From the NCBI GenBank assembly GCA_000004985.1, contig GG738928.1: DNA of 64,000 nt. One strand, written 5' to 3'. A program made the translations under genes and the position numbers. This DNA is from Naegleria gruberi (Eukaryota). A model generated the notes under the pieces. It did no database searches. It saw only the letters and a list, made by a program, of their open reading frames with translations, and was not told the origin of the DNA. How positions within the stretch are numbered: the first letter of the stretch is position 1; each line of letters begins with the position of its first letter. This document shows positions 4,387-57,124 of the stretch, piece after piece.

Positions 4387-7245
4387 TCAATCTTCATTAA
4401 TTCCAAATTGAAAGTCTTTTGAGGAACTATCTTTTGGTAGTGTGTCGAANNNNNNNNNNNNNNNNNNNNNNNNNNNNNNNNNNNNNNNNNNNNNNNNNNT
4501 TGAATATCTGAATAGGTTTGATAAAAATGTAGTATCACATGGACAACCACTGAGATTCAACTCATCCAGTGTCTGGAAGTACATGTACATAATATTAGAA
4601 AAAATTTTAGGAAATTCAATATTTGAAAGATCCAATGTTTTCAAACATGCAAATTCCTGTAAAAATGTTCTAAACGAATCACTGTAAATTGGATTGATAT
4701 CTGTACTCATATCACCTGTTATATTGTTCAATTTGACATTCTCAATGGAAGGGGAATAACTCAATGAATGAGCAATTGAAAAAAGAGCAGGTGGTGACTT
4801 GTTTCCAGTGAATTTGAATGTCTTCAGATTCTTCTTAGCTAGTAAGCTATCTCCAATTCTTTGTGTCCCTCTTTCTCCAATATCACAATGAGAAAGATCT
4901 AAATAGGTTAGATTAGGGCAGTTTTTCAATTTTTTCAAAAAATCGGCAAGATATGAGACACCGTTATCCCCAATCTTGTTGTTGCTAAAGTCTAATATTT
5001 TCAATGATGGAAAGTTAATATAGAATGAAGAGAGATCTGATCCTGTAATCTTTGAATCATGAAATATCAAGCTCTCTATTAATGCTCTTCTAGAATAATC
5101 ACTCTTAATAGAATAAAAGAATGTCTCAAAGTCTGCTCCTTTATCCTTTTCCTGATACTCGATATTCCAATGTTTGAGAATTATTGTACTAATTGGAAGG
5201 GATGATAATATTTTCGTCAAAACATCTTGGCAACCATTGAACCAACAAGTCTCCAAACATTTGCATTTAGAATATCTGCTAATCATTCCAGAAAGGAGAA
5301 TGAAATTATTTCTTTCAGCCATTTCACGAAGAGTTCTGCTCATCGACTTTTGTAAATATAATTGCATCCATGCGTCTTTCATCTCCTTTAAATAGTAAGG
5401 AAGTTTTGAAATTCTCCATTTTGAATTGCAAGCAATTTTCCATTCTTGTTCTGATGTAAGTTTTGGCAAATCTTCTAGAACTATGTGTTTTCTAAAATTT
5501 GTTGGAGGTTTTCCATGGTAGCCTTTTTGTAAACTACTCTGAATGCAGGATTTGAGTAGTTCAATAACACTATCATGAGTTTCAAATACATGGAGAGATG
5601 ACATTTCATTCAGTAACTTGAAGAAGGTTTTAAAGTCATTCATCTTTTCAATTTGGTTCAATTTTTCTATGAACGAATCTATGGATTGATAAGGCAATAT
5701 TCCACAATTTTCATTCATAAATTTAGAAATACTTTCAATAGAGTTAAAATCGGAAAAGATCTGGATAAAGTAAATGTGTAATGTGAGTTCTTTCAACCTC
5801 TTTCTGATACTTTTGAAAGAATAGGACACTCTGTCGTCATCAGTTACTTCAGCACATTGAAAATCTGCAATTTCCTTGTAGCTCTTCAAAATATTCTTAA
5901 CATATCTTGTCAAGAATTCTCTAACATAGATATCATACAAATCTTTCCAATCAAATTTTGAAAATGGAATTAGCATTACAAAGTTTAACAAATCTCCAAC
6001 TTTTTCTTTTGATCTTTCTTCACTTCTAATAAAGGAATCAATAGAGCTATTAATCAATTCACTAATCTCTGGAATTTCCTTAATCGCCTCGATCATCAAT
6101 CTGAAAAATCTCAAGCAAGCCATAAATGCATTGGTGGTCTTTTCTCTCTGATCAACCATTTGAAGCAAACAATTAGACATCAATCGAGGAAGAATTTCAA
6201 TAACTTGTTCTGGTGAAAAATCTATCTTTTTCGAATGGGAACTGGACAAATTAGCTAATGAAGATTTGGTAACGTGAAGAACCTTCTTGATATGAATTTC
6301 ATCATTTGTTTCTGTAAGGATTGGTATCCAGTGTGTAAATGAAGTTTTCTCTCTTGACATTCCTCTCACATTATAATTCATGAACGCTCTCAATGAAAGA
6401 ATATCCAGAGAGCAATATATAGAACATATTTCCAATGATTTTGCGTTTCTCTTTTTACAGTTAATTCCATAGCCAACAAGATCACTTGTTTTGGTAAAGA
6501 AGCAAACTGAATCTGAGTTGGCTAACACTTTCTCAACTTTACAATTCATTCTTTTGAAACCATCATCTTCCTCTCTAGATACAAATGGAGGAGAAGGTAA
6601 ATGATTAGAATGGCCAACTTTTCTATTAACATATGCTTTGGCATGTGACATTGACCATTCCTGAGCTGACAAGTATTCTTCCTTTTTTTCCTCAAAAGTC
6701 TTTGGATCCTGAATATTTGACAATACTCTAGTCACATCTGCTCCATCATATAAAAACGTTTGCAACTGCATCAAGATTGAATGAACAGAATAAATTGGTT
6801 TCCACTCCTCAAGAAAATCCAAACAAATCCTATCAGAATCGACCACATTAGGATGTTCCATCCTCGTACACAATCGAATAGTGGGCGCCTCCATTGGATA
6901 ATTCTCACTAAACTTGATCACTGCATGAAAAACCACACCATCATACATGGTATCTGAATTTCCTCGAATATTTACGTGCCACATCATGAAATCCCTCTCA
7001 TCATCCACCTGAAAATTCATCTCCCGATAAATATTCATTATTTTCAAATTATCGAGAGCCTTCTTCTTCTTGATCGGAGCTGGACATGCACTCACATGAC
7101 TCAGTGGATTTTCTTGAATGTATTTAAATTCGGAATATAATCTTTTCAAGGCTAAAATTGGAGAAGTTTTACAATGTTTGTAACTATTCGGATCTGAATT
7201 TGCTTTCGAACGTGCATTGGGCTTGATCTTTTGGTGTTGAGACAT
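4387..7245 (-). CDS. Ubiquitin-conjugating enzyme (UBC/E2) domain fused to a long C-terminal region ending in RNI-type leucine-rich repeats. The 3' end is interrupted by a 50-N scaffold gap (4450..4499).
   Basis: The N-terminus has the UBC fold motifs (...GNSDTMYDGVVFHAVIKF..YPMEAPTIRL.TRMEHPNVVDSDRICLDFLEEWKP.YSV.SIL..LQ) with the catalytic Cys retained. The C-terminus has repeated L..LDLS.N.IGD.G...L-type LRRs. ATG at 7245. Confidence 0.6.
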   Translation of the reverse strand: MSQHQKIKPNARSKANSDPNSYKHCKTSPILALKRLYSEFKYIQENPLSHVSACPAPIKKKKALDNLKIMNIYREMNFQVDDERDFMMWHVNIRGNSDTMYDGVVFHAVIKFSENYPMEAPTIRLCTRMEHPNVVDSDRICLDFLEEWKPIYSVHSILMQLQTFLYDGADVTRVLSNIQDPKTFEEKKEEYLSAQEWSMSHAKAYVNRKVGHSNHLPSPPFVSREEDDGFKRMNCKVEKVLANSDSVCFFTKTSDLVGYGINCKKRNAKSLEICSIYCSLDILSLRAFMNYNVRGMSREKTSFTHWIPILTETNDEIHIKKVLHVTKSSLANLSSSHSKKIDFSPEQVIEILPRLMSNCLLQMVDQREKTTNAFMACLRFFRLMIEAIKEIPEISELINSSIDSFIRSEERSKEKVGDLLNFVMLIPFSKFDWKDLYDIYVREFLTRYVKNILKSYKEIADFQCAEVTDDDRVSYSFKSIRKRLKELTLHIYFIQIFSDFNSIESISKFMNENCGILPYQSIDSFIEKLNQIEKMNDFKTFFKLLNEMSSLHVFETHDSVIELLKSCIQSSLQKGYHGKPPTNFRKHIVLEDLPKLTSEQEWKIACNSKWRISKLPYYLKEMKDAWMQLYLQKSMSRTLREMAERNNFILLSGMISRYSKCKCLETCWFNGCQDVLTKILSSLPISTIILKHWNIEYQEKDKGADFETFFYSIKSDYSRRALIESLIFHDSKITGSDLSSFYINFPSLKILDFSNNKIGDNGVSYLADFLKKLKNCPNLTYLDLSHCDIGERGTQRIGDSLLAKKNLKTFKFTGNKSPPALFSIAHSLSYSPSIENVKLNNITGDMSTDINPIYSDSFRTFLQEFACLKTLDLSNIEFPKIFSNIMYMYFQTLDELNLSGCPCDTTFLSNLFRYSXXXXXXXXXXXXXXXXXFDTLPKDSSSKDFQFGINED
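4450..4499. other. Assembly gap (50 N)
   Basis: Run of N. Confidence 1.
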
Positions 7246-7607
7246 TTTTTTGAATGTTTTTAGCGGAAATTAAGATTTTTGAAAATTTTATAAATTGAGT
7301 TGAACTTTGAAATATAATTGAAATGATTTTAATGGAATTTCCATCTTTACAAAAAGACACGAAAATATTGAGACGTTGGAGAGTGTCACTGTGGGTCATG
7401 ATCGATGAAATTTGAAATGGAATCTTCAAATTGTAATGTTTAAAGAGAGATGGTTTCACTAGTGAATTTTGATTTACTCTTTTTTTTCAATCTTGTTTTT
7501 TAATATTTCTGAATTTTAGGTTAAAATGAGTTTTGGCGGGAAAATAAAGATTATTCACTTGAAACTTTGTAAAATAATTTAATGTACCTTGGAAATTATT
7601 TGAAACA

Positions 7608-8318
7608 TTATTTGGAAAGACCATCTTTGAGGAGTTTTTCCATCTTTTCGTCAAATTCTTTTTGAAGTTTATCCTTGTCTTGTTGTTCTTTTCTGGTAGA
7701 AACATATCCATTGACTCCTTCACGAATTATAACTTCAGTTTCTAATAGAATAGTTTCGTCTTGTTTCACAAATTTAGATTTGAATTGAATGGAGCTTCTG
7801 TTATTTTGCAAAACATTTTCTTCAATATTTTCAAAAATCAGAATTGATTCGAATAAAGCATTTCCATTTTCATTTCTAATAATCAACTTGACATTTTTAC
7901 ATTCAATATTCGAAATGATAGATAAATCCGAACAAAAACTCTTTAAAAATTCTTCATTATTAACATTTTCATCAGAAATGTTAAAAATAATTTCACAATC
8001 CTGCACAGCATCCAATTGTAAAGTGTTAATTTTGTGTGAACAATTTGATTCCAGCAAAATTTTGCTAGATTTACATTTCATCACTTCTACAAATCCTGTT
8101 GTGATGGAATTTACATTAAAAGTAATAGTAGAATCATTATTAGAATCTAGAATAATCTTCATGCATCGGGTTCCAGTTAATTTAATATTGGAATTTGTGC
8201 TGTTGGAAACATAGAGAAGATCATTTGATTGGAAGGAAGTTTCTTCTACTGTTGTATTGTTGTGAGTGATAAATTGTTGAGTTCTTCTAGCAAATGGTGA
8301 TTGAGGAATAAATGTCAT
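7608..8318 (-). CDS. TBCC/CARP (C-CAP/cofactor C-like beta-helix) domain protein, 236 aa
   Basis: Repeated I.L.NC....I.....V.V..C.. beta-helix rungs typical of tubulin cofactor C / RP2 / CAP C-terminal domains. ATG at 8318. Confidence 0.45.
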   Translation of the reverse strand: MTFIPQSPFARRTQQFITHNNTTVEETSFQSNDLLYVSNSTNSNIKLTGTRCMKIILDSNNDSTITFNVNSITTGFVEVMKCKSSKILLESNCSHKINTLQLDAVQDCEIIFNISDENVNNEEFLKSFCSDLSIISNIECKNVKLIIRNENGNALFESILIFENIEENVLQNNRSSIQFKSKFVKQDETILLETEVIIREGVNGYVSTRKEQQDKDKLQKEFDEKMEKLLKDGLSK

Positions 8319-8508: not shown

Positions 8509-8581
8509 AAGCGCATAGCTCAGTCGGGAGAGCAGCAGACCCATAAGCTGCAGGTCAGAGGTTCAATTCCTCTTGTTGTTT
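8509..8581 (+). tRNA. tRNA-Met (anticodon CAT)-like; possibly a pseudogene or a diverged initiator-like tRNA
   Basis: A box (TAGCTCAGTCGGGAGAGC) and B box (GGTTCAATTCC) are good. The anticodon loop is CCCATAA and the 1:72 pair is A:T, both initiator-like. The acceptor stem has 2 mismatches (AAGCGCA/TGTTGTT) and the anticodon stem has an A:G mismatch. Confidence 0.5.
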
Positions 8582-8766: not shown

Positions 8767-11700
8767 TTAAATCAATTTCGAATCATTCAACAAATTTTCT
8801 CTGGTTTTACCAGAATTTTCATAAAAAACAAACTCATCTGTTGTAGTAAATCTGGAAAAGGTATCATTCAAGTTGATAATAATCTGATCTTGTAGTGAGC
8901 TGATTGATTGTTGCAATTTTTCATGGAATGCTTCTGGTATTTCCTTTTCATTCTTTGATTTCATTTCTTGATTGTTCTTGGCAGAGTTGACCAATTCACT
9001 AAGTGATTTTCTCATTTGTTTGAATTCGTTTCTAGTTTCGGATGGAATGTTAACTTCCTTAATGGAGCCACTTTCAATATAATTGGTAAATAATTCTTCA
9101 ATCAATGAATTCACAGAGTCAATTCTGTCATTTGCTTTGATTAACTCTTGGAGTTGTTTCAGTTCCAAATATAAATGCAAGTTTTCTAATGAATATTCCT
9201 TTTTACAGAATGATTCGAATAGTTTCAGACCTTCTCTATTCGATAGTAATTGTTCCAATTCATCCTTTTCTTCATTACTCGATTGGTTTCTAAAATTCTT
9301 TTGTTTGATGAAATGAACTAATCTCACAATAAGTGCAAATCCTCCAAATACCAACAAGTAACTAAACAAGTACAATATTTCAAATAGCAATGAAATTGAA
9401 TCGTTCACTCTTGAATTTACATCACCTCTCTTGTAACTCAAACCTGACAATCCAATAATTTGTGAAATTACCAAAAATGTAAAGCAAACAATAAATAAAA
9501 TCATTTCCACTCTAAAGTATAATGGAGTATCGAGTTGAATGAACCAATCATAAGCTCTCTTGATTGGAACTTTTGCCATTTTCTTGGCAGTTTCCTTATC
9601 AAACTTTTGTAAAGCTTCCTTGTTAAACGAAAGTGAACTATTTGATAAATTACTTGTTGATTTTTCATTACTATCCACAAGCATTTCAGATTCATTTCTA
9701 GAATTCAAAAGTGACATGATCACATCTAACAAAATCAATGCACATATAAGAAATCCCAATGATAAAATCATAATTGTAAACGAAATTGAAACAATGTAAG
9801 AATATTCGATTCCTGTAATGACACTCGTTCTCACAAGAATTACCCACAACGTCCAATACATTAGGTTCACGGTCATAAAGATTCCCATGATGGAAATCAT
9901 TGCTCTTGTGGAGAGGAAAATTCTAATCACTCTCAAAATTTTGTCTCCCTTTTGGTACAATTGACTAGTTCTATCATTTTGGTTCAATGAGAATTTAATG
10001 GATAATCTATGATAGAAATATTTGAGAATGTGAAATCTTGATGTCTGATACAAGTATGAAAACATTGCTGTCAAAGTCAAAGTGTTTACAATAATTGTAA
10101 TAACATTCGAAACAATATTCGATGCCAAATTACCATTTTCCAATTGAATCACCGTCGACTCTGTCAATCCCTCACTCTTCAATGATAATATCAACCCATT
10201 TCTAGTAGTATCCAACAAAATACTCCTCTGAACTATCAGAAATAGTCCACTTTCCACCACCAATGCAAACATTCCAATAAACGGAGTTACAAATCGACTC
10301 GCCAATGGTTGAGATTTTCGCATCACAATCAAGGCAACGAGAATTGAACTCGACAAGATGAAAAATAAAACACCAAATGAAATTTGTGCAATGTACAATT
10401 CGGATAATTGTTCGGCAGCCCTTAATGAATCAGTTGCGGTGTTATTAAGGGAGTTTTCGATAAAGGCAGCGAAGAGTGTGGTGTGCGTACATTTACAAAT
10501 TAAATCTCCGTTTGATTGTAAAGTGGAAAGCGAGCAGCCGCTGGAATCCCATTGTAAAGTTGTTTCATTCCAGAATTTACAAGTGATTTGAGATGAATTG
10601 AGAGAATTGATTGTTTGATTCAATATTGTAAAGTTAATTGAAATTGGTTGAGTCAATTCTGAAAGTGGTAATGTTTTACCTCCTAAATAAAGAGTGAAAT
10701 CTTTAGAGTTGGTCAATTGAGTTTGATTTGAAGTAAATAGAGGATTAGTATAGGTTATGAGTGATAATCCAACTTCCTTATTGTAGCCATCGTATTTTGT
10801 TAGAATGTAATCCGAATCTAAACTAATGTCGGAGAATTTTTCTAATTTAGTGCTGTTAGAATTCTTAATAAATGTTGAAACTGTTACATTAATCAAATCT
10901 GATGAATAAACTGTGGAAATAATAGATTCGGATAATAATTTGACCGATTGCTGCAATAATAGAACAGATGTCAATTGAGTACAAGTATTCGAAACATTTG
11001 AGAAACCAAAAGAAAGTAAATTACTTGCACTTGTCAAGGTTGTTTGTAAATCAGAATCTGAAATTCTTTGCTTTGTAACGTAGCCAAGAGTTTCCTTTTC
11101 TTTTTTGTAAATTTCATTAACTTGATTCAAATAATTTCCTAATTTGTCATTAATTGCTGTAGCAACCTCATTGGAAGAAGCTGATAAAGTAATTTGTTTC
11201 AGATTTTCCAAAGCAGTGGACGGATTGGAAATGTCAATTGTCATCTTATTGACAGACTCTACAAGTACTGAACTAGTTACTTCCTTTCTCAATTTTAAAC
11301 TTGTATCATATGGAAATACAGTTGCAATACTACCCATTCTTGCTTTCAAAACTTCTGAAGAATCGTCCAAATTTGCACTAATCGAAACTGAACTAATCGA
11401 TTGAGAATATTCAGTCCCCAACGCATCCAAACAAATTACAAACAATTCCAAACTTTGACTTGTAGCCAAACTTGTTTCATTCAAATAGGGAAGATACACA
11501 GAATCTCTTCCACTTGTCAAAAATTCTGAAATTCTAATCATTGAATTCTTAAATTTAAATCCAAAAGCAAATTTGAGAGGAGAAAGAAACAATCGACTCG
11601 CATTCGAATCTGTAAAATTCCAAGCACCTACAACTTCCTCAATAATAAAACTTGTTTTCAGTGCAACACCTGACAATGGTTGAATATTAACAATTGCCAT

Positions 11701-13604
11701 TGGATTTCGAATTGGTGGTGCGACGAGAATTACTTGTTGTGAAATGGCGATGATTTGATCCTTAATTGGCTTAATAAGGAGTGTGAAGGTGAGATTTCCA
11801 GAGGATTGGATGGTTGGTTGGATTTTGATGGAAATGATGGGATTGAAGGTCAATGTGAATAAGTTGGCGTTGTTTTTTGGTTTCGTCAAGATTCCAATAA
11901 CATTTTCATCTGCTGAAATAACTTCAGAACCAAACATGAATGAATATTTCAATGAAATGGTACAATTTGCAGTAGCACACTCATCCCTTGTTAATTTCAA
12001 ATCTGAACTAGTTCTCAATTCAACGCTCACAATATTGAAATCAACATTGTTTTTCACACCATTCACAAGTACTTGTGGAATTCCAATAGCATTCAGTGAT
12101 CTTTCCACTAAAAGTGAACAATCTATACCTAAATATCCTCCAGTACAAGTACAAAAGTCAGGTTGTAGACAATTGCCATTTCCAGAACAAACATTCGGTG
12201 AATTAGCCGAAACTCCAAAACAAATTGGAATGAAACAATTAGGTCCAGTATATCCAGGTGAACAAGTACAATTATTTGAAGAAGCACAAATACCATTTCC
12301 TGAACAAACTCTATTATCATTTGCAGCAATTCCAAAACAACCAATCGAGCCACAATTATTTCCATAAAAACCTGGTTGACATTGACACTTGTTCATTTCA
12401 ATGCATTCACCCCTTCCTGAGCAAACACTGCTACTGTTAGTACTCTCAATTCCAAAACACCAATTTGTAACACACATTGTTTTGAACTCATTCAAATAAT
12501 AACCACTTTCACATGATGGAGTTAGTGATCTAATTCTCTTTTTCAAAAATTCTGAAATATAAATTACACCACTTGTCTCATTAAATACTAAACCTCTTGC
12601 ATCACTCACTGAACTATCCAGAGCATCAGTGTTTTCATATGAAGTTGTGCTATTTCCAGCAATCATTGTAAGAGTTCCATTCTTGTCAATTCTGAAAATT
12701 CTTCCCTTATATGTTTCTGTTACAAAGACAGTTTCGTCCTTGGTAACGAATAAAGCACCACCTCCAATTGGGGAACCAGTGAATGCTAGTGTTGAAATAT
12801 ATCCAGTTTCGTTTATCACTCTAACACCTTTCGTATCTGATAGGAAAATCTTTCCATTCCTAACAAAAATATCAAAAGGAGACTGAAGAATAGCACTAGT
12901 AGCTAGAACACCCTCTCCAGAATACGAAGAATCCAAATCACTTCCTGCTATTAATGAAATTATTCCATTCTTGACTAATCTAACTCTCGACTTGTCTATC
13001 AGGTAAAATTCATTCTCTGAAATTGCAAAGATTGAATTTGGACCTTTCAGAGCACTAAAAGCAGATCCATTTTCAGTGAAGGAAGACAAGGAGAAATCAG
13101 AATAGTTTCCAGCAACTGTGGAGACGAAACTATTCGGCCAATCACGAAGAGAAAGTTTTCTGACAATTCTATGTATTCTAATGATTAAAGATAATGATGA
13201 AATTGTTATATTGTGATATTGTGTGAAAATGTCATGTTATTAGCTTACCTGTCAACGTAAAAGAGGGTGTCATTGAAAATACTCGAGTCAGCCACAGTTG
13301 ACATACAAATAGTGTTCTGATTACCATCAGGAGTGTATATTGAAGTGTTGTTTCCAATCTTGTTAGGAGAAAAACTTTCACTTTCCAATGAAAAGATTCG
13401 AATAGTACGGTTTAAACCATCAGAAACGATTAGTTCGTTGTTGTATAAGGAAATTCCATACATTCCAATATCTGGTGTAGAAATTGGACCAATAGTCTTG
13501 ATAATGTATTTAACACTAGCTTGTTTTTGTTCTTGTCCATCAACAGCCACAAACAGTAACAACACAATTGACAACAACAACCATGTATGACAGTTGACTT
13601 TCAT
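8767..13604 (-). CDS. Giant adhesion-GPCR-like receptor. Domain order: signal peptide, NHL-like repeats, 3-4 EGF-like Cys repeats, long extracellular region, GAIN/GPS motif, 7TM, cytoplasmic tail, C-terminal RGS domain. Two exons (13249..13604; 8767..13177), intron about 71 nt with an alternative acceptor at 13160.
   Basis: ATG at 13604 with signal peptide MKVNCHTWLLLSIVLLLFVAV. The donor GTAAGC follows ...LFYVDR and the acceptor is in phase. EGF-like CSGNGICASSNNCTCSPGYTGPNC repeats are present. The GPS motif is CKFWNETTLQWDSSGCSLSTLQSNGDLICKCTHTTLFAAF. It is followed by 7 hydrophobic helices. The RGS-like block is FESFCKKEYSLENLHLYLELKQLQELI. Confidence 0.7.
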
Positions 13605-14452: not shown

Positions 14453-14525
14453 TGCCGACACCAGGGATCGAACCAGGGACCTTAAGATCTTCAGTCTTAC
14501 GCTCTCCCAACTGAGCTATGTCGGC
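14453..14525 (-). tRNA. tRNA-Phe (GAA)
   Basis: The reverse complement GCCGACATAGCTCAGTTGGGAGAGCGTAAGACTGAAGATCTTAAGGTCCCTGGTTCGATCCCTGGTGTCGGC folds as a canonical cloverleaf. The acceptor stem is perfect, the anticodon loop is CTGAAGA, and the T-loop is TTCGATC. Confidence 0.9.
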
Positions 14526-14776: not shown

Positions 14777-15880
14777 CTATTGCAAAGAACAATTCTGTTT
14801 TTTTGAGGCAAAACTAGTGTGAAATCTGAAAGCCATGGCAGATCTGTAAACTTCATCAAAGACTGATTTGAGCCCCTCTTGTGTTAAGCTTGAACAGTAA
14901 CCTATTTTTACGAGATGTGGAAAGCTATGAAGTTTTCTTTCCAGAGTATGTTGTCCTACTAGTGAAAAGGTATCCAAATCCTTTCCTGTTATTATAATAT
15001 GAATTGGAATAAGGGGAAAAGTCATGGCAAGTTTTCTCAAATTCTGAAGAATACGTTTCTCAAATAATTGTTCATCATTCACAAAATTATTCAGTTCTGT
15101 ACATTTACAAGTAAAAGCCACAACATTGAAAGGTTGCTTGATAACTTCTTGAACAATCTTCTCATTTGATAGAGACATGCACTGCATTGTGCACATTATC
15201 ATACATCCATCAATCATAATATTTGCTTCAAACAATGACTCCTTTTCCATCATACCCTCTTCTGCGAAGAAATTAGTACAATAAGTACAGAGTAAACTTG
15301 ATTTTCCACTTTTAGGAAGCCCTACAATTCCAATATTCAGCCGTAAAGGTGTTGATATTGAACTACCCGCTCGTCCCAAGACAACATAAGGTGATTTACC
15401 ATCATATTTTGGTAGAGAACTTTCTAATAATTCTCTTTCAAAATTAATCATTTCTCTAAAGATGTGAAATATTGTCTTGACAGAGTTTAATCTCAGCCCT
15501 AACAATTCTAATTGGTAAATGATAAAAGTCTTGTTCTCTTCCAAACTATTCTCTTTCAATTCTTCAAATTTCGGTAAATTCCTATATAATTGCAATAACT
15601 TTCTGTATTGATTTACATCTACAATCCAATTAGACTTTGATCCTTCCTCTAAAATCATTCCTTCAATACAATTTACTACTCTCCTATAAATTTCCATTCT
15701 GCTCTTCATCAATTCCATTCCGAAACGATTTAAAATTTCATCAACTTGTTCTTCATCTCTCAGAGAAACTGAGAGAAAATAAAGTAAATAATACCGATCA
15801 GCATAGCCCAGAAATTTAATGATCTCATTGAAACAATCATGTTGCTCTGAATACAACTGAGCAAGGAGGCAACTCGACAT
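14777..15880 (-). CDS. P-loop NTPase/GTPase-like protein (Walker A GLPKSGKSS) with an N-terminal alpha-helical domain, 367 aa
   Basis: ATG at 15880. The motif LNIGIVGLPKSGKSSLL is present, with a possible NKxD-like TGKD downstream. Family not assignable. Confidence 0.45.
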   Translation of the reverse strand: MSSCLLAQLYSEQHDCFNEIIKFLGYADRYYLLYFLSVSLRDEEQVDEILNRFGMELMKSRMEIYRRVVNCIEGMILEEGSKSNWIVDVNQYRKLLQLYRNLPKFEELKENSLEENKTFIIYQLELLGLRLNSVKTIFHIFREMINFERELLESSLPKYDGKSPYVVLGRAGSSISTPLRLNIGIVGLPKSGKSSLLCTYCTNFFAEEGMMEKESLFEANIMIDGCMIMCTMQCMSLSNEKIVQEVIKQPFNVVAFTCKCTELNNFVNDEQLFEKRILQNLRKLAMTFPLIPIHIIITGKDLDTFSLVGQHTLERKLHSFPHLVKIGYCSSLTQEGLKSVFDEVYRSAMAFRFHTSFASKKQNCSLQ

Positions 15881-16255
15881 TTTTTAAAAGGCTTGCATAT
15901 TTATATTTATTTTATTATTTTGTGGTTTTATAAATATCATCCACATGGTGTAAGAACTTTTGCCACCAATTACGTACTTGACTTTAGACATTTTAGGTTA
16001 TTTTTGCCTGTTTTTCTGAAAAACAGATTTTGTAATGATGGCTGATTTCTGACGGTTCTGCCACTACAGATCTGCCATCCTTTTTTTCTTACAGAGCTTT
16101 CCACCAAATTCTTAATAAACTAACTTTTAGCCTTAAGCAAACTAATTTTCAAGAATAAACTCAATAAACAATAAAACCATCCACTACGGAGCCAACCTCC
16201 AATAGAATTAAATTAGAATCTCGAGATATTTGGTAATAATCAAAATATTTGCGAT

Positions 16256-19200
16256 ATGGCAAATCCAGCCAAATTAAAAAAAATGCGAACTTTATTATCT
16301 TTCGTAATCTTGCTCTATTTATTCACTATTGTGGTCACAGGTGAGGTGAAATCCATTCAGCAACAACAGCAACGAGAATCCTCATTCACTTTCTTCCTGG
16401 ATTCTTATCAAGGAACGGAAACAAATGTTTCATGTCTTGATGAATCCATTCCATGTGTTTACATGTCTCAAGTTATAGACTCGGCACGATCAATATTACA
16501 GCTGGGAAACAATTCCTCAACATTATCTTTAGAGATGAATATTCTAGTAAGAGGAGAAGTAATTGACTGCGATATTCTAATTGACTTTACTAATTTTACA
16601 TCAAATTTTAAATTGAATATTGTTGGGTGGGATGATGACGACTATTTCCTATCATCATGTTATCCTTTTCTACATGTAAATAGTAAAATAGATGAGTTGA
16701 CCATTGTAAAGGGGTATTCAATTCGAATAATAATTGTATTTAATTATGAAATGAAGAATTTATCCATTTCTAAATGTAAAGGAAGTCTTACTATTCAAAC
16801 TTCAATTGAAAATGCAAACATCTTGGAAAGCGAATTTAATTCATTAGAAATTACAAGTCAGATTCAAAATCTTGTTATACTAAACGATTCGATTACTTAC
16901 TTACAAGGAAATTTGAAAGCTAAACAAGTGAAAATGGAAACTATTAATATTTCCAATTTTAAATTAGTGGAAATTAAGAATTGTCATTGGAGTTCATTCT
17001 CAGGGACAAGTTTATTTCATGGCGGAGAGAAATTCTCAATTCTTTCAAGTATTATTACAGGCCCAATGATGTTTGAAGTTGTGAGTGTTTTGGAAATAAT
17101 CAACGTCACTGTTAGCAGGGTTAATTTTGAGCCAGAGAATGGAAATTTTTTTGGAATAGCCACAGTTGACCAAGTGACAATTGAAAGATGTAATTTTGTG
17201 GATAATACTATTGGTGGAAGTATGATTTCAGTACAACGTTGTAAAAATTTACTTATTGTTAATTGTAAACATTCCAATAATTTATCCAAGTTTATTACAA
17301 TCCTGTCATCTAGTAGGAATCGAATTACAATTCAAGATTCTGAATTTTTCAATAATCAGGCAAGTGATGCCTTAATTGTTTTTGATTCCAATTATGTTGT
17401 AGATAGCACTATATTACTATTAGATAATTGTAATTTTGTGAATAATATTGGAGGATTGACTGGATCCGCTCTGAAAATAACTAAAGCTAATGTTCTCATT
17501 TCGAGTTGTAACTTTTCATTTAATAAGGCAGGTTATGGAGGAGCTGTCTATATGATAAGTCAACTTTCTACTGTTATCGAATATTCAAATTTCACTAACA
17601 ATGAAGCAACTCAATCAGGCGGTGCAATTTATGTGGGAGATGTTTCAAATCTACGACAATGGGAAACAGTAGAAACAATTTGTGATTCTAATAACGCATT
17701 GGAAGCTGGAGGATGTTTATATATGAAAGGTAAATCAAAGATTGATGTGGTGTATAATTTTGCTGGAATCAATAAGGCAATTTGTTATGGTAACAATATT
17801 GCTACAGAACTCACAAAAAAGAAGTTTGAATTTAGACTCAATGGATTCGAATATCAATTGATTACCAATCAGAGTATTCAAATTTATCCAGGAGAATCCC
17901 TGGATTTGAGAATTATATTATCAGATAGATACAATCAGAAAAGTGTAATGCTTCCTGAAAATCAAATGTCTATGAAAATCAATTCTAATAATTTAGTTTT
18001 ACAAACACAAGGTTTTACAAGCGGAAATGATAGCATACTTTCGAATAATATTCAAATACTTCTTAAAGAATATCAATATGCCAACTTCCATGAAGAAACA
18101 ACTTTTTCATTCATATTGAAAGATATCGAACATTCGATTAGAATGAAATTGGTTGATTGTCCACCAGGATATACCATTTCTAAAAATTATGGAAATGTCA
18201 AATGTGAATACATTCCAATAGAAATCATTCTTCCAGCTGCTATTGTTGGTGCTATTTCCTTAATTATTATATTTGTGACTGTAATTTTGGTGGGAATTTA
18301 TATTGTTAAAAAACTCAAAAAATTGAGAAGACAAGAAAGAGCAGAAAAGGAAATTCAAAAGAAATTTATTGATAATTCTTTTGTTTTCAATAATGGCAGC
18401 AATGGTTCAGATTTGAGTGTTCCACTGGTTGAAAAATCTTTCAACTCTGAGGATTCTATTCGATACACTATTCCAATTGCAGAAATTGATATATTATCTA
18501 AAATTGGAGAAGGATCTAACGGATTAGTATATAAAGCAAAGTGGAACAGGACAGATGTTGCCATAAAACAATTGAAAACTTTAGGAGAAGAGGATGATGA
18601 AGAGTTTGAAAGAGAAGCTCTTTTAATGAGCTCATTAAGACATCCGTCAGTTGTTAGTTGCTACGGAGTTTCAATAACCAACGACAGCAAGTATATGGTT
18701 GTAAGTACTTACTTTTGAGAAATAATTTGAATTTATTGTATATTAGGTGGAATACTTGGAAAATGGAAGTCTTGAGAAGGCACTCTACAAGTCTAAAATT
18801 GGAAAAGAAAAATTGTCATTCGAAACTAAATTGAATATTCTCTTGGATGTTGGAAAGGGTATGACCTATCTCCATTCGATAAGACCTAACAAGATTATTC
18901 ATAGGTAAGTTTAGTTTCTATTTACTTTGGAGAGTTAACAATTTTCAGAGATTTGAAACCGGGAAATATTTTGCTTACCAAAAATTTAAATGCCAAAGTG
19001 AGTGACTTTGGGCTCAGTAAGATGGTTTCGAATAATACAGCCACAATGACCACAAATGTTGGAACCTTATTATACATTGTAAGTTTTTCACAATATTCCA
19101 TTTAACTAATTTAGCAATTTCCATCTTTAGGCACCAGTAAGTTTTAACAACAAATTAATCATTGATTTATTATTTAATATTTTAGGAATTATTATCTAAT

Positions 19201-28958: not shown

Positions 28959-29149
28959 AATAAATCAACTGTAGATGACAGCAAATCTCAACTGCGTGTA
29001 TTCAAGGCCTCGCTCATTTGTTAGTTCAAATGGTGCATTATCGTAGAATTTTAAAACTATATTAATACCATCGCATCTCCAAATATCTCAACACCTTTGT
29101 TTGGTCCCTTAATCATTGTGTCTGTTCCCCATTTGAAAAGAGATTAAAA

Positions 29150-31427
29150 ATGCCTTTAAATGCATCGAATGTATCCAACAGAAGTAAGGATGATGTGATC
29201 ATCGAGGATGGGTATACAGCATCTTCATCGTTATCGTCATCCTCATTATCGTTATTAAGGGCAGGTGATAGTAAAAGCTGCAGTAGCTGTTCAATAGAAG
29301 CAGCAACTCCATGGAAACAAGATACATCCTCATCATCAACATCAGATGACTTCATAATTCCTATTCGGAATGGTAGGAGCAACTCTCGCCAATTCATAAA
29401 AACACCATCCTTTTCATCCCTTTCAACAATAATAGATTCTTCACTTCCATCAACGCCTAAATCATTGCCTTCATCACCATCATCATTACAAAATCATCAA
29501 GAAGGAACAGAACCACCTCTTACTGATACTCTCCTAGTTAAATCGATGAGCGAATGTAAGAATGACATGGAGAGGGGCATGTTGAACATGTTGGCTGATA
29601 AGAAGAATCTTCAGAGATTGGTCGGAATTCTCTTCATCTTTGCCACTCTACAAAGTGTTCAACAAATGACACTCTATGAAAATTTATTGAATATTGCCTT
29701 TTTCCTTGTTCAGTGCCTTAATAATTATTTAAGACAAACTAATAATGATACAGCTCTCACCTATGAGGAATCATTCAAACATTTGGATAAAAGAGAAATT
29801 ATAAGAACTGTTTTTTCAATGGTCATGTACACTTTGAGAATGATGTATCTTCCCAAACACAAGATGATTTTCCTTCCAGTGCTTTTTATTTGGTTTGCAG
29901 GAGCTAACAAACTATATATCTACTCTACATTTTGGGGATTACTACCCACTTACTATGCTTCAGTGATGTATATATCGTTGGCTTGCTATTTTGGATTTTA
30001 TGAATTGTTAGAGAATGGGTACACTGAGACATTTCTAAATTTAATGATGGATTACTTTATTTTGGTGGCTGTGGTGTGGATGTGGACATATTATCTGGTT
30101 AATGTAACTGGATTCTTGAAACACAAAGTGGACAAACTGAAGGAAACAAGGAAACGTTTGGAAAGTGCTTTGGAAGCACGAAGTAGATTCATTGCACATG
30201 TGAGTCATGAATTCCGTTGTCCAATCATGTCCAGCATTGGGTGTTTAGAATTGTTGAAAGAAACTCCTCTGAATGAGAAACAAAATGATCTCGTAGATAC
30301 AATAGTTTCATCGAATAGTGTCATTCTTCTATTGATTGAAGACATTTTACAAATTGTTAAAATTGAACATGAAAGTAAGGGTGCAAAGAAGGAAGATACA
30401 AATATTCAACCTTTCAATATTTTCGAATCATTGAAATCGCTGAAAGGAATAATTTCTGGTTATGCTTCGAATTTTAAGGTTAAGCTTAATTTGGAAATTG
30501 ATGAAGGAATTAAGAACTTGACAGTTTTATCAAATCCTTCAAAGATCCATCAAATACTTTCTAATTTGCTGACGAATGCAGTGAAAGCATCAAAGAAAGA
30601 TGATGATGTTTGGCTTAAATGCAATATTTTGGAAAAGAAAGATGATGAAACTGTAAAGATTAGATTTACTTGTCAAGATTTTGGATGTGGAATTCCTCCT
30701 AATTTGTTGGAATCTATATTTGAACCCTTTGTACAATTGCAAAATAATTCACAATCAAAAGTACCTAGCTCTGGGCTAGGATTGACTACAGTATCTCATT
30801 TAATCAAGACATTGAATGGAACTATTAACGTTGAATCACAGGTTGGAATAGGAAGCTCATTTACAGTTGACTTGGCTTTTAAAATTGTTCCAAACGAGGT
30901 AAAATATAAAGTTCAAGAAAATGTTGTTGTAGAAGAAAAGAGATCGAAACTACACTTGAACGTTCACAAGAATTACTTGAACCTGATGTCACATTTAGAA
31001 GAAGGTGAAAAGGAAATGGAAGAAACTCCAAAATTCAATTCCAATGTTTTGATAGCTGAAGATAATCCAATCAATAGAAAAGTTATTGTAAAGATGATTA
31101 ATAGTATGGGAAGTGAAACTGATTTTGTTTGTGATGGAAAGGAATTGGTTGAAAAGTTTAATCCAAGCACTCACAAAGTTGTATTTACTGATATGGTAGG
31201 TAGCTCAAATTTCGTTTTTTAAGGTCTAATAACAATAATAGAATATGCCAAATATGAACGGATTAGAAGCAGCCAAGAAATTAAGAGAAAAATTTGGAAA
31301 TACTTTCAGGATTTATCTCTTGACAGGAAATGTCACAATTTCATTATCTGATGAAATTGGTGTGTTTGATGGAGTGTTAACTAAACCTTGTTCTAAACAG
31401 GATTTGAAAAAATGTTTGGAAAATTAG
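29150..31427 (+). CDS. Hybrid sensor histidine kinase. Domain order: Ser-rich N-terminus, polytopic membrane region, HisKA, HATPase_c, receiver. Two exons (29150..31195, 31242..31427); the 46-nt intron splits the receiver domain.
   Basis: H-box HVSHEFRCPIMSSIGCLELL. N/G boxes (LSNLLTNAVKAS; DFGCGIPP; GLGLTTVSHLIKTLNGT). Receiver motifs IAEDNPINRKV... and VVFTDM|NMPNMNGLEAAKKLRE span the GTAGGT...ATAG intron. Confidence 0.8.
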
Positions 31428-34055: not shown

Positions 34056-35065
34056 TGATTTTTTAAATGGCATTACTTAATGAATCAATATTGATATCAA
34101 TAAAAACAAGCTTCTTTGTTGAATTTGTATTAAAGTGTAAAATCTGCAACAAAAGACTACAGCACCACAGGTTCCCAAGTTGTCTCCAACCTCAGCACTG
34201 ATGTGGCTCGACGATGCTTAACTTCTCAAATCGGACGGGATGAGGTGCATTCATCGTGATATGGCCGTAGCCATTCACATCCTTAATATTAAAGTTTATT
34301 AATATTGTAAAACGTATAATTCTATAATTGGAAATTTCATTCATTTGACTATCAGAAATTATTAACTTCGACATATATTGAATTTGCAATATTATTATCC
34401 TAAAAAAGAAAAGAATGATAGAAAGTTGTGTAATCTATTTTTAAAACTAGAGTGTTGAAGTCTTAATTTCCATATTGAAACTGTTGGTTAATTTAGAAAC
34501 CAATAAAACCACAATAACAAATACAATTTCTCTTTTCTCCTTTCCAAAACTATATTTTAGAGCTAATTATATTGAGTATTACAAATAGTTACCATTTAAT
34601 GGAACAACAGACCACTAAGTCAGTGAATCTCCCTAAGTAACTGGAAGATCCACTTACTACTGGTAAAGTAGTTGGGAATCGAGAGAGAGGATTTCTTAAA
34701 AAAGAAGTCAGCTCTCAACATATCCCGATAAGATGAACTGTATGTAATTCTTTTGCATATTTTGATAAGGAAATTAAAATTGTCTGACGTAATTTGTACG
34801 AAACCTGCAATTTTGAAATTCTTCAATAAGATTCCAATTCAAGAGCTGCCACAAAATGAAAAACAACCTGTTGAAAATAAATTTCTCTTTTAAAATCAAA
34901 TAAAAATTAAGAACTATCATATTTTATTAACACAGCTTCTTATGATAAAGGTTGTGTTAATAAAATTAGCTTAAACTGCAATAGCTCATAATAAATTAGT
35001 AAAAGATTTAATTTGAATTATCTTTATGAACTTTAGAGTATAAATTATAGTTTAATAAATTAATC

Positions 35066-36181
35066 TTAGTGTCTTGGACCGTAGTCTCTACTGTCTCTAG
35101 GACGAGATTCAAACTCATTACGAGATGATCCTTGATTGTTGTTCTTATTTGAATCATTGGTTGTTCTTCCATATGAAGGTCTATCAGAATAATTTCCATA
35201 AGATTGATGTCTGTCATAATATGCTCCTCCTCTATTGTTGTTGTTATTGTAAGAACGAGGTGGTGGAATTTCAATTTGATTTGAATTATCAGACACTCTA
35301 CCATAAGAAGATGTTGGACCATAATAGGATGAAGAATTATTTCTTGAATCAACTCTTCCATAGTGAGGTGAATTATTTTGTGGAGGAGGGTAAGGTTGAT
35401 ATCTATTATTATTATTGTTGGAATAGTGATAATCACGAGTTGATCGTGGATTTCTGTATGGTGATGATGGCCTAGAAGATGACGATCCATATCGATCTCG
35501 ATCATCTCGGAATGGAGGAGAAGGTGGAGAATAATTATCAGAGTGACGATGATGATCTGATCCATTGTTTCCTCCACGATGATAGTCATTATTATAGGAT
35601 GATGATCTGCTACTATCACGATCATTATCATAAGATCTTCTACCAGACATTGAACCTCCTCCTCTTGGTTCTCTTCCACCTCTTGGTCCTCGTTTCTTTA
35701 GCATCTTTATATAATCATCTCTCTTCATACCACCATCTTTTCCTCTTCCGTATTGTCTCCCTTCTACGAAACCTGTATCGATGGCAATTTTAAGAGCACG
35801 ATTATTTAATTTACATCCTCTACAATATTTAACGCATTCCTCTGCATCGGATCTGTGATAGAACTCAACAAAACAAAATCCACAAGGTGTTAACGTATTT
35901 CTATTTAAACCCATTACAACTCGCTTAACTTCTCCACATTTTTCAAACAATTCGTATATTTGCTCCTCCTTGGTATAAAAACTTAGATTTTCTACATAGA
36001 TTGTTGAAGATTGAGAAAGTGCCCTCTCGAAATCCTCTTCATTTCCGCCCTCATTTACATAGTGTTTTAATAAATATTCATATTCTCTCTTGCTTCCGTG
36101 AAAAAATTTTAAAGGATGATGAGCTTCGAGAAGATGAGCCATTTTTTTTGTATCTAAATTTTTATTCTTCCCCTTCAACAT
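35066..36181 (-). CDS. Nuclear cap-binding protein subunit 2 (CBP20/NCBP2) with a long RG/RS/Tyr/Asn-rich C-terminal extension. Alternative start at 36142 (MAHLL, A-rich leader).
   Basis: RRM block [52 protein letters not shown]....Y..G..L..R...[12 protein letters not shown] aligns to CBP20. The track's first codon is GTG. Confidence 0.8.
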
Positions 36182-36473
36182 TAATTCATCGAGCCTTCTT
36201 TGCACAAAGGAATATCAACACCACAAACATAGCTTAGCATAGCAGACAAAGAGGCTTTGACAGAGTTGTGGATTCTTTGCCATCACCCTTGACTAGACAT
36301 GGTACAAGAAAACATTTTGCACAACATTGGAATGCCCTTTGAAATGAATTATCATAACATACACACCATTAATACCTTACTGCCCTCTTATTGTGACAGG
36401 TCCATTTATCTATTGTTTATTGTCACAGCACAGTATGAGGACACAGTAATGAATTAACATCTTCTTTTAAAAA

Positions 36474-39400
36474 ATGCCTCAAGATAGAAGGGCCAACCTC
36501 TTGCTCTTGATTATCACAGTTATTTTGTGTTTCGCAGCAACGGCCGACTTGTCTAAGGGAATTTTAACGGAGGCAGAATATCAAACCTACATCTCCAATT
36601 CATGCCCTTCTAAGCCTCTCTCCACTGATGCTTGGTACTCTGAGGAAAGTAACTTGATAAATATTATTCTTGCGGGTGATAATTCAAAGCTTCCTCTGAT
36701 CTACCCTCAGGAGTATTCGACGAATAACACTATTGTAAGGGATGATATTCTCAATACAACTACAACAAGCAACTCTTCACCAGCAACAACAATATTACAA
36801 TCAGGAAACAATACAACAGTGAACAACTCCTCCTCAACAAGCAACACAACTATTACCATTATTCAAGGGTGGGATGATCTTCTCAAAGTTCTTAATGAGA
36901 CTTTGAAACCCAACGCTACCCTCGCTGATAACTCAACAAGTGGAAATAATAGTTCTCTAGGATCGAATGGTTCAATCATTTTTAATTCCACCAATTCACA
37001 AACAACTACTAATGGAAATGTACCTCTGTTGAATACTACCCTTAACTCAACCACAAACTCTAGCCCTTCTGTTGGAACAAATACAACAAATACTCAGTTA
37101 TCCTCCAATACAACCCCTAGTGTTATTTCGAATAGTACTGGTACAGCTTCGACAATCAATTCCACTAATGCTAACCTGAACACAGTGAATGGAACAAGCG
37201 GAAGTACAGAAATTGGTTCGACCTATGGATCCAACAGCACTTCTGGTCAAGGTAATAGCACAACCACGAACACGCCATTTGGTTCTAACTCTAATTCCAT
37301 AGGATCAACAATAGTAACTAACGGAACTGTTGCAGCCGGTGCAATTTCTAGTTCAACAGTAACCTCAAACGGTGGGTATGTTGGCTCCAATACCTCTGGT
37401 TCAATAAGCACAACTTCAACTGGATCTAATAGCCAAGGATTAGGATCTAGCTCCTCCACAAATGTCTCTGCTAATAATACTGCAACTGTTAGTGGACCTT
37501 CAAGTGGATTTAATTCTACTTCTGGGGCAACTTCTGGGGCAAACAACGGTTCCGTTACAACAAGTACTGGAACAAATGGTCAATCAACTACTGGAACAAG
37601 CTTAGGATCGACCTCCTCTAATGGTTCAAACAGTGGTTCAACTAATGGAACAAATACAGGTTCCGTTTCCACAAGTACTGGAACAAGTGGTTCCTCTTCA
37701 AGTGTTTCAACAAACTCAGGATCAACAAGCTCTTCTAACTCTGGTTCAACTAATGGAGCAAACACCGGATCAATTGGCGTTTCTAACTCTGGATCTTCTA
37801 TTGGAACAAATACTGGTTCTGGTTCAACAATCACTGGAACCAGTTCAGGTTCTTCAACTAGTTCTAACACCAATACAGGAAACAATAATGTCTCCAATTC
37901 TGGATTAAATGGTCAAGGAACAAATTCTACTTCAAGCTCCTCAGCTACTAACATTTCAGGTTCAAATAATACTGGATCAAGTAATCAAGGAAGTAATTCA
38001 GGATCCAGTTCTACTGGAACAAGTAGCACTTCAAGTACTGGATTAAATGGTAGCGTTTCTTCAGGTGGTTCTAACACTGGAACAAATGGAGTATCAAATA
38101 ATGGATCAGCAACTGGCATTGCTCCCAATGTCTCTGGAACAAGTGGTAGTTCCTCTTCAAGTGTTTCAAACACTGTCTCCTCAAACTCAGGTTCGAGTGC
38201 TAATAATACTTCAACTGTTAGTGGACCTTCAGCAGGATCTAATTCTACTTCTGGAACAACTTCTGGAGCAAACAGCGGTTCCGTTACAACAAGTACTGGA
38301 ACAAACGGTCAATCAAATTCTGGAGCTAGCTCAGGATCTACCTCCTCTGGCTCTTCAAGTGGTTCGAACAGTGGTCCTGGCTCTAATACTGGTACAAGTG
38401 ATACTAATACAGGGTCAACAAGCTCTTCTAACTCTGGTTCTTCGAGTGGAGCAAGTACTGGTTCAGGTTCTTCAACAAATTCTAACACTAATCCAGGAAA
38501 CAACAATGTCTCCAATTCTGGATTAAATGGTCAAGGAACAAATTCTGCTTTAGGCTCCTCAGCTACTAACATTTCAGGAGCAAGTAATACTGGACAAGTT
38601 CTACATCTCAAGCTCTGGATTAAGTAATTCAGGATCCAGTTCTACTGGATCAAGTAGCACTTCAAGTACTGGATTAAATGGTGGCTCTTCTACAGGTGGT
38701 TCTAACACTGGAACAAATGGAGTATCAAATAATGGATCAGCAACTGGCATTGCTCCCAATGTCTCTGGAACAAGTGGTAGTTCCTCTTCAAGTGTTTCAA
38801 ACACTGTCTCCGCAAGCTCAGGTTCGAGTGCTAATACTTCAACTGTTAGTGGACCTTCAGCAGGATCTAATTCTACTTCTGGAACAACTTCTGGAGCAAA
38901 CAGCGGTTCCGTTACAACAAGTACTGGAACAAACGGTCAATCAAATTCTGGAGCTAGCTCAGGATCTACCTCCTTTGGCTCTTCAAGTGGTTCTACCAAT
39001 GCTGGACCCAATTCTAGTAGTAATTCAACGGTCAGTGGTGGTTCTTCAAATGCATCTGGTTTTACAAGTACTGGACCGAATACTCAAGGTGGTTCATTAT
39101 CTGACTCCTCAAATACTGGAACTGCTAGCACTCCAAGTGCTGGATTAAGTAGTGGATCTTCTTCAGGTGGTTCTAACACTGGGACAAATGGAGCATCAAA
39201 TAATGTTTCTGGAACAAATGGTGGTTCATCTTCTAGTGTAACAAACAGTGGTTCTGGTTCTAATACTGGTATTAATACTGGAACAATTGGCGTTTCTAAC
39301 TCTGGATCTTCTATAGGAACTGGGGTAAATACTGGTGCTGGAGCAAGTTCAGGATCTTCAACAAATTCTAACATCAATACAGGAACCAATAGTGTCTCCA

Positions 39401-44906: not shown

Positions 44907-45812
44907 TTTTTTTTTTTAATAAATTATTAAATTATTTAAATTTTTAATCGATGTGATGATGGCTTGATTTTTTCAAAGGCTTTAAAGTTTTGCAAAGAAG
45001 GCTTGTGTGATGACGCTCTGCTTTGCCGATCTAATCAGTGAAATCAATGATTGGAATTTTTTTTGAAAAGTGAATCGTGACGACTTGTTGATTGCTGATG
45101 GTAGTAGGATTGATATTAACAAAATAATGATTCAAATCAGTTTTTTACAGGGTTCTCCACATTCATTTACATTGTGAATGTCAAACAAGAATAGATACGA
45201 CAATCGACAAACATGAAAATAATAAATGTGAAACGACTAACCGTTACGAATAAAATTTAAAAAAAACATCATGATGATGTTTATTGTTTGCAACATAACA
45301 ACACCCTTCCACATTATTTTCACATAAACAACCATTAAACCTGATAATGTTTCAAACAATAACATTACAACCTCAAGCTTCCGAAGATATTCAGTATTGG
45401 CTGCCAAGACTTACGCTTGTTTCTATTTGATATCCAAAGCGCAGGTGACAATGTAAACCGATGTGAAAACACACCAATTTAATTAACACTACCGAAACTA
45501 ATAAATTTAACCCAAATTAAGAGTGACAATATGAATGAATCTTTTCTATGTCAATGATGAAAAAAGAAGTTTATTTTATTTCCATTTTCGAATTTCACGT
45601 GGAGAACCNCTGGTTTTTTAAAAGATGGGGATACAATACAGATGGATCGGTGGCGGTTCTGATTATCAGATCTTAATATTTGTTGTTAACTATTTAGAAA
45701 CTTTCATCAAATTCTGGTTAGAATTATAAAGTTCCATGTTCCGAAAACTATTTCTAAGGATTAATTCATCAAACAAGAGTTTCCGATACTTTTATCATTG
45801 ATTCCAATTATT

Positions 45813-56711: not shown

Positions 56712-57124
56712 TTTAAAAGATTATGATAATTATATATTATTAATGATGATGATGGTAATGATGGTATGAATGATATGATAACGATGGTGATGATTGTATT
56801 TTAATACTATAATAATTTAATCAGTGATGAAGTATGATGATTGTATAAATTATCTTTAGAGTCAAAGATGATATGATGTTCCGAATTTTTTTTAATATTA
56901 TTTTCATCAACAATCAAATTTTTCCATTTCATACAACAAACTTGAACCTTAATAATACTACAACAACAACTAGTGGCACAACAATCAAACATTCAATTTG
57001 TAATTCATTCATATTCTATCGATTGATTGATTAATTAATTCATACTATTTTATTATCATTTTACAAATATATACTACTACTACTATATATATATTAACTT
57101 GTTTACCATATATTTCCATTATAA

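Follow-up and report, generated by a model that had tools for sequence, protein, structure and literature searches.

Two open questions meet at a single gene of Naegleria gruberi: whether seven-transmembrane (7TM) proteins with an RGS box are GTPase-activating proteins (GAPs) regulated by ligands, and whether the tethered-agonist switch of the GAIN domain is older than animals. The gene lies on the minus strand of a 64,000-nucleotide stretch of contig GG738928.1 (assembly GCA_000004985.1), which was analyzed as a whole and is called the window hereafter. Its product brings the two together in a single polypeptide, since a readable GAP output, acting on a known and partly self-activating G-alpha, would sit behind a GAIN domain. 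The tools that we used support the following order of parts: signal peptide, NHL propeller, three EGF domains, REJ-like module, GAIN domain with GPS motif, seven-helix core, and cytoplasmic RGS box. We consider the protein to be probably a type-I-oriented cell-surface receptor-GAP, regulated by adhesion or ligand, of the Naegleria 7TM RGS family.

Does one gene encode all these parts? The gene model has two coding exons.

8767 to 13604, minus strand: coding sequence, coinciding exactly with the span first predicted
13249 to 13604, minus strand: coding exon 1 (356 nucleotides), with the ATG at 13604, codons 1 to 118 plus 2 nucleotides, ending in AG before the donor GTAAGC
13178 to 13248, minus strand: intron of 71 nucleotides, GT to AG, phase 2, with the acceptor TTAG at 13178
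8767 to 13177, minus strand: coding exon 2 (4411 nucleotides), running to residue 1588, with the TAA stop codon at 8769 to 8767

The spliced coding sequence of 4767 nucleotides is translated into 1588 amino acids with a single stop, the terminal one, which agrees with the original prediction of about 1590 residues over two exons. An exact-sequence look-up showed that this product is identical to N. gruberi NAEGRDRAFT_75738 (EFC36621.1, XP_002669365.1, UniProt D2W2W7), which is labeled “predicted protein” in the public record and placed on a 160,583-bp scaffold. The identity of the 1588-residue product implies that the public gene model removes the same 71-nucleotide intron. An intron of 89 nucleotides, originally given as the other option, also keeps the frame. 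We rejected it, since it loses six residues (IHRIVR) matching an NHL blade of the paralog P0001 and is absent from the public model; the alignment with P0001 crosses the 71-nucleotide junction free of gaps, which favors the shorter form. The support for the gene model consists of sequence, paralog alignment, and public prediction. The gene is real, already publicly annotated, and unstudied: the literature searched contained nothing on this locus tag or accession, nor on “GAIN domain” together with Naegleria. The 90% cluster of D2W2W7 is represented by a 119-residue fragment of exon 1, as a result of which the full protein was missed in the first search for homologs.

An exhaustive search of 1.84 billion cluster representatives with the family profile returned 139 proteins. 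In a local tally of 144 collected sequences with this core, an RGS box was present in 125, and the motif CxCxH was found just upstream of the core in 87. Among the weakest profile matches, 23 of 34 carried RGS and some had an alpha/beta-hydrolase N terminus; none of those inspected fell in a known G-protein-coupled receptor (GPCR) Pfam family. Judged by these sequences, the core family comprises about 140 clusters worldwide, and a fused RGS box accompanies it in nearly every case. Named members belong to N. gruberi (at least 9 genes), N. fowleri, N. lovaniensis, and Willaertia magna, and the others are metagenome contigs and EukProt-derived sequences. Word-index searches gave one match with the 7TM-RGS part and none with the 7TM alignment, which is no evidence of absence, since low-complexity transmembrane (TM) segments defeat the index.

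These counts bear on the possibility that the gene model is an artefact, in which a neighboring adhesion gene and a separate RGS gene were read as one. In its favor, Naegleria has many stand-alone RGS genes, one more of them in the window at 45765 to 48125. However, in exon 2 a single open frame of 1440 codons links the NHL domain to the RGS domain, with no stop and no splice needed, which is far beyond chance at a genomic G+C (GC) content of 31%. Moreover, the domain order first described, 7TM and then RGS in one chain, recurs in those 125 of 144 members and in several species. On the strength of this open frame and of the recurring architecture, we regard a fusion artefact as extremely improbable and reject it.

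The combination of domains, which was not recognized in the original prediction, turned out to be described already. N. fowleri expresses 28 seven-transmembrane proteins with a C-terminal RGS domain (Bosch, Jeck & Siderovski, J Biol Chem 2022, PMC9283941), several of which have GPS motifs and EGF or lectin ectodomains (PMC9283941). Outside Naegleria, 7TM-RGS architectures are found in many bikonts, chytrids, filastereans, and ichthyosporeans (de Mendoza et al., PMC3971589). The gene adds an NHL-bearing member to a family known from the sister species N. fowleri and is not new in kind. What is added here is a core family set apart from class B2, a stalk made of a REJ-like module and a GAIN domain, the H-T-T signature, and the family counts.

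Which parts of the protein could make it a receptor, and which a GAP? Its features are as follows.

13536 to 13604, minus strand: signal peptide, residues 1 to 23
12514 to 13517, minus strand, intron included: teneurin-type NHL beta-propeller, residues about 30 to 340
12118 to 12459, minus strand: three EGF-like domains, residues 359 to 394, 399 to 433, and 438 to 472
11374 to 12117, minus strand: middle ectodomain, residues 473 to 720, REJ-like in its C-terminal part (residues about 606 to 720, 11374 to 11718)
10459 to 11274, minus strand: GAIN domain, with helical subdomain A (residues about 754 to 865) and beta-sandwich subdomain B (residues about 873 to 1025)
10468 to 10584, minus strand: GPS motif, residues 984 to 1022
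10477 to 10485, minus strand: codons of the GPS triad H1017-T1018-T1019
9301 to 10413, minus strand: seven-helix core, residues 1041 to 1411, with TM1 at 1048 to 1072, TM2 at 1083 to 1105, TM3 at 1138 to 1161, TM4 at 1205 to 1232, TM5 at 1246 to 1272, a long third intracellular loop at 1273 to 1337, TM6 at 1338 to 1362, and TM7 at 1382 to 1406
8809 to 9258, minus strand: RGS box, residues about 1426 to 1575

At the cytoplasmic end, the Pfam RGS model scored 40.3 bits (cutoff, 23.9) at residues 1426 to 1519, and the rest of the box follows an insert. Sequence matches in the PDB were to RGS3, RGS16, RGS10, RGS2, and RGS4 (E values of 1e-7 to 2e-5), and structural matches by Foldseek were to RGS1, RGS8, and RGS16 (target TM-score of 0.6 to 0.76). 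The C-terminal RGS domain of the original prediction is upheld by the Pfam score and by the fold alike. We aligned the box with what we take to be the RGS4 reference sequence, whose numbering reproduced S85, E87, N88, N128, D163, S164, and R167. Against this presumed reference, S85, E87, N88, and N128 correspond to S1448, E1450, N1451, and N1495, while D163, S164, and R167 correspond to D1557, T1558, and R1561, with Thr in place of S164. By this alignment, the residues contacting G-alpha are intact.

Members of the family from N. fowleri have been assayed. The RGS domains of Nf 7TM RGS2 and RGS4 are convincing GAPs in vitro for Naegleria G-alpha, with G-alpha selectivity, and Nf 7TM RGS3 is active on G-alpha5, its apparent effect on G-alpha3 being judged a likely assay artefact; a G-to-S mutation in switch 1 of G-alpha abolishes the GAP effect (PMC9283941). 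By homology with these N. fowleri proteins, the window protein would be expected to have GAP activity.

The N-terminal side of the membrane core carries a GAIN domain. An AlphaFold model of 899 residues that includes it was built from only 12 sequences and has a mean predicted local distance difference test score (pLDDT) of 73.2 and a predicted template modeling score (pTM) of 0.51. In this model, the GAIN region begins with five helices and continues with 13 strands; the turn that links strand 12 to strand 13 contains the H-T-T triad. The top Foldseek matches in the PDB were the GAIN domains of adhesion GPCRs, ADGRB2 (8oek, E value of 2.5e-8) and CD97 (8ikj, 2.8e-8, 709 columns), followed by CELSR1, BAI3, Gpr126, latrophilin, and GPR56 (overall range, 2.5e-8 to 8e-4). 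The GPS motif scored 35.4 to 36.8 bits in Pfam (cutoff, 22.5) and is complete, with four Cys and two Trp (C985-x2-W988-x6-W995-x4-C1000-x12-C1013-x-C1015-x-H1017-T1018-T1019). A GAIN/GPS unit just before the 7TM region, as originally proposed, is borne out by Pfam, AlphaFold, and Foldseek.

The H-T-T triad had been overlooked in that first reading. Residues C985, W995, C1000, C1013, C1015, H1017, T1018, T1019, and F1021 are invariant across 12 family members, and the triad is HTT in 83 of the 87 GPS-bearing members, HAT in three, and HTG in one. The P+1 Thr is found in 86 of the 87, and the P-2 His in all 87 by construction, given that the search motif was CxCxH just upstream of the core. The retention of P-2 His and P+1 Thr at overall identities down to about 22% fits a retained catalytic function. 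The cleavage consensus of adhesion GPCRs is His-Leu/Ile-Ser/Thr, and that of their tethered agonist is TxFxxLM (PMC13197933). H-T-T is a family-wide, noncanonical signature. The Stachel-like strand, TLFAAFIE, corresponds to residues 1019 to 1026, and the synthetic peptide named for probing its effect is TLFAAFIENSLNN.

What kind of membrane domain connects the GAIN domain to the RGS box? Hydropathy revealed seven segments within residues 1046 to 1411, where AlphaFold places seven long helices (pTM of 0.71 for the core part alone; mean pLDDT across models of 73 to 74), which bears out the 7TM core of the original prediction; structure prediction from GAIN to RGS recovered the GAIN fold, the seven helices, and the RGS fold. 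There are 21 Lys and Arg residues in the predicted cytoplasmic loops versus six in the predicted outer loops. This bias, together with the 26 N-x-S/T sequons and 29 Cys of the ectodomain, fits a topology with the N terminus outside and the C terminus inside. Scanning the core against Pfam gave no match at an E value of ≤10, 7tm_2 included, the family 7TM profile found no GPCR among PDB sequences, and Foldseek gave nothing below an E value of 0.07 for the core, with ADGRG2 only at rank 22. We therefore rejected the core as a divergent secretin/adhesion 7TM domain, since none of these comparisons showed preferential similarity. The core is a family of its own with a GPCR fold, tightly coupled to RGS, and is not detectably class B2 (7tm_2). 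The description “adhesion-GPCR-like” holds for the GAIN domain before TM1 and for the adhesion modules, but not for the core, in which neither Pfam nor Foldseek detected 7tm_2. Motifs conserved on the cytoplasmic face are R..QP..SR after TM1, D.PL.FR.E before TM6, and GG in TM7.

Such a core could also belong to a true receptor with guanine nucleotide exchange factor (GEF) activity and an RGS domain in cis, in which the tethered peptide would make the core activate G-alpha and the RGS box would sharpen and shorten the signal. This arrangement would resemble the animal GPR158-RGS7 complexes fused into a single chain. It seems unlikely to us: the core is unrelated in sequence to every GPCR family with known G-protein coupling, and it is almost never found without RGS. 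In addition, AtRGS1, which has been studied most among the 7TM-RGS proteins, is a GAP rather than a GEF (cited in PMC9283941).

For a receptor-GAP, the ectodomain would be the part that meets the signal. Hydropathy of the signal peptide peaks at 2.22 at residues 3 to 21, and the N terminus of P0001 is alike. The NHL region was detected by Pfam TEN_NHL in three stretches (26.5 bits in the whole protein and 34.6 bits with the N-terminal domain alone; cutoff, 27.1), matched the teneurin-like PDB entry 9pt5_A in four stretches (E value of 8e-19), and is 30% identical to the NHL domain of P0001 (E value of 2e-51). Pfam EGF_2 scored 51.8 bits (E value of 9.9e-14) in three stretches, in keeping with the Cys pattern, and EGF_Teneurin matched with an E value of 7e-13. 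These hidden Markov models and the PDB sequence match bear out the NHL and EGF modules first described; GPS and RGS passed their Pfam cutoffs, as did NHL with the N-terminal domain alone, and 7tm_2 was absent from the Pfam matches.

The REJ-like module ahead of the GAIN domain was another feature that the first reading overlooked. Residues 473 to 720 gave no direct match in the Pfam scan, REJ included. The equivalent regions of the paralogs P0001, P0002, P0003, and P0005 scored 33 to 40 bits with Pfam REJ (cutoff, 25), and a jackhmmer profile seeded with residues 473 to 720 of the window protein aligned these four nearest paralogs with E values of ≤1e-73. In hhalign, the alignment led by the window protein matched the REJ regions with a probability of 94.5% (E value of 7.7e-8, 103 columns, residues about 606 to 720; reversed control, 0.1%), a match that spans only the C-terminal part of the REJ model. 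In P0015, a family member further removed, a REJ domain scoring 99.9 bits lies ahead of the GPS-7TM-RGS part. Given the paralog matches and the hhalign result, we call residues about 606 to 720 REJ-like, an assignment that is transitive for this protein. The stalk would then consist of a REJ-like module and a GAIN domain, as in polycystin-1.

How might these parts work together? At rest, the receptor-GAP would keep G-alpha-GTP low at the membrane. A surface-bound or matrix ligand, or a mechanical pull, would engage the NHL/EGF/REJ ectodomain, and the GAIN domain would relay the signal to the 7TM core. Cleavage in H1017-T1018-T1019, between T1018 and T1019, might expose the strand TLFAAFI, which would serve as a tethered peptide. 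The altered core would then change where the RGS box lies, how accessible it is, or how long it stays at the surface, and with it the local lifetime of G-alpha-GTP, a scheme that we liken to the regulation of AtRGS1 by glucose in plants. That the ectodomain modulates the GAP in this way is suggested by the anatomy of the protein, by AtRGS1, and by the precedent of adhesion GPCRs.

Several points weigh against this scheme. Bosch et al. call the receptor role, and the effect of extracellular cues on GAP activity, unknown (PMC9283941). The AlphaFold models, built from those 12 sequences with a pTM of 0.51, are unreliable as to how the domains are placed relative to one another. At P-1, Thr replaces the consensus Leu/Ile, both here and in 83 of the 87 GPS-bearing members, which leaves autoproteolysis uncertain. 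The residues of the Stachel-like strand double as the core of the GAIN sandwich, so their conservation alone does not show tethered agonism. Finally, an insert of about 27 residues (1508 to 1534) separates RGS helices 6 and 7.

Some of these observations would also suit a constitutive, membrane-anchored GAP combined with an adhesin, in which the GAIN domain would be an uncleaved stalk, the seven helices a mere anchor, and the RGS box free of allosteric control. Thr at P-1 does not match the His-Leu/Ile-Ser/Thr consensus (PMC13197933), and several animal adhesion GPCRs with a GAIN domain stay uncleaved. An ectodomain of similar NHL and EGF composition occurs on Naegleria kinases, suggesting a portable binding module. 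However, P-2 His and P+1 Thr are kept across more than 80 divergent members, and the invariant motifs on the cytoplasmic face (R..QP..SR, D.PL.FR.E, and GG) are not expected of a passive anchor, and we find this alternative quite improbable. The kinase domains joined to that ectodomain were observed in the Naegleria proteins P0022, P0039, P0042, P0050, and P0055; its presence both on kinases and on GAIN-7TM-RGS proteins indicates that Naegleria appears to shuffle one type of ectodomain.

Our preferred reading remains that of a regulated receptor-GAP. A more specific form of it, in which H-T-T is cleaved before the second Thr and TLFAAFI is a tethered peptide driving a core with GAP output, would make the protein a force- or adhesion-gated “off-switch receptor”; we regard this form as possible, if doubtful. 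If a cleaved off-switch receptor with a REJ and GAIN stalk were true, the membrane-adjacent GAIN switch of adhesion GPCRs and polycystin-1 would be an ancient eukaryotic device. N. gruberi is nonpathogenic and can be grown in culture, so that its protein could conveniently stand in for the N. fowleri proteins that have been put forward as drug targets. For annotation, the class B2 label should be avoided for the core, the stalk described as REJ-like plus GAIN, and the family triad given as H-T-T.

Other features of the window were as follows.

4390 to 7269, minus strand, and 16217 to 18715, plus strand: open reading frames (ORFs), ordinary neighbors, of which one has a ubiquitin-conjugating domain with leucine-rich repeats and the other has the beginning of a protein kinase domain at its end
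7608 to 8318: ORF next to the receptor gene, NAEGRDRAFT_75737
8509 to 8581, plus strand: tRNA gene, 186 nucleotides past the receptor stop codon (Rfam tRNA, 45.8 bits; not reported by ARAGORN)
14453 to 14525, minus strand: tRNA-Phe(GAA), between the receptor gene and a minus-strand ORF at 14777 to 15880
29066 to 31219, plus strand: ORF for a hybrid histidine kinase (HisKA and HATPase_c, then the beginning of a receiver domain)
34154 to 34272, minus strand: chromosomal 5S rRNA gene (Rfam, 100.8 bits, full length)
36000 to 42000: region of 39 to 42% GC, versus about 31% elsewhere
45765 to 48125, plus strand: ORF of 787 amino acids with an RGS box at residues about 654 to 782
56000 to 58000 and 62000 to 64000: very AT-rich stretches (21% and 17% GC, respectively)

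The RGS box of the 787-residue ORF was found with the family RGS model (domain E value of 7e-10) and scored 21.7 bits with Pfam RGS, just below the cutoff of 23.9; the protein lacks a 7TM core and probably belongs to the numerous stand-alone RGS proteins of Naegleria. The GC-richer region contains three long ORFs at 36471 to 38624, 38554 to 39996, and 39537 to 41696, in different and partly overlapping frames and with no Pfam match. It could represent a single large gene with introns, or else a foreign or repeat element.

How does the protein compare with known systems? In the complexes of GPR158 or GPR179 with RGS7 and Gbeta5, RGS is a separate protein recruited noncovalently, and the receptor is of class C and has no GAIN domain. 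In polycystin-1, PKDREJ, and the sea urchin REJ proteins, a REJ module precedes GAIN/GPS beside the membrane, an order that the REJ-like module and GAIN domain here would resemble, and a preprint links polycystin-1 to heterotrimeric G proteins and a tethered peptide (bioRxiv 10.1101/2021.08.20.457171). Polycystin-1 has 11 transmembrane segments, in contrast to seven here, with a PLAT domain following TM1 and a channel-like C-terminal part; the Pfam scan of the window protein found no PLAT, PKD_channel, or TRP-like channel part.

AtRGS1 and the other plant and protist 7TM-RGS proteins have seven transmembrane segments with a C-terminal RGS domain, in organisms with a self-activating G-alpha, and are likely to share the receptor-GAP logic (AtRGS1 being a GAP, as cited in PMC9283941). 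AtRGS1 differs by the lack of both a large ectodomain and a GAIN domain. AtRGS1 was not compared directly, and the inspected weak tail of the profile search was protist-like, with the motifs R..QP..SR and DP..FR.E and nothing plant-like. The adhesion (class B2) GPCRs, such as latrophilin/ADGRL, BAI/ADGRB, and CD97/ADGRE5, are similar in their large modular ectodomain, which here has teneurin-type NHL and EGF modules, and in the GAIN domain with a complete GPS adjoining TM1, the triad of the window protein lying about 22 to 29 residues from the membrane. The strand T-L-F-A-A-F-I also resembles their tethered agonist, TxFxxLM (PMC13197933). Unlike them, the window protein has no 7tm_2 core and no HormR domain, has Thr at P-1, and ends in an RGS box, for which reason the expected output is G-protein deactivation.

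The closest system is the set of 7TM RGS proteins of N. fowleri. One N. fowleri member, P0002, aligns with the GPS-7TM-RGS part of the window protein at 1123 bits and 35% identity (phmmer E value of 4e-107) and scores 476.9 bits with the family 7TM profile. Nf 7TM RGS1 to RGS4 have EGF-like repeats, and RGS2 to RGS4 also have lectin or putative carbohydrate-binding domains (PMC9283941), whereas in the N. gruberi protein an NHL propeller takes the place of the lectin domains and there are only three EGF domains; the paper makes no mention of a REJ-like module, a GAIN fold, or an H-T-T triad. The N. gruberi protein and the N. fowleri set, from the same genus, share an EGF-rich extracellular region, a GPS motif, seven transmembrane segments, and a C-terminal RGS domain.

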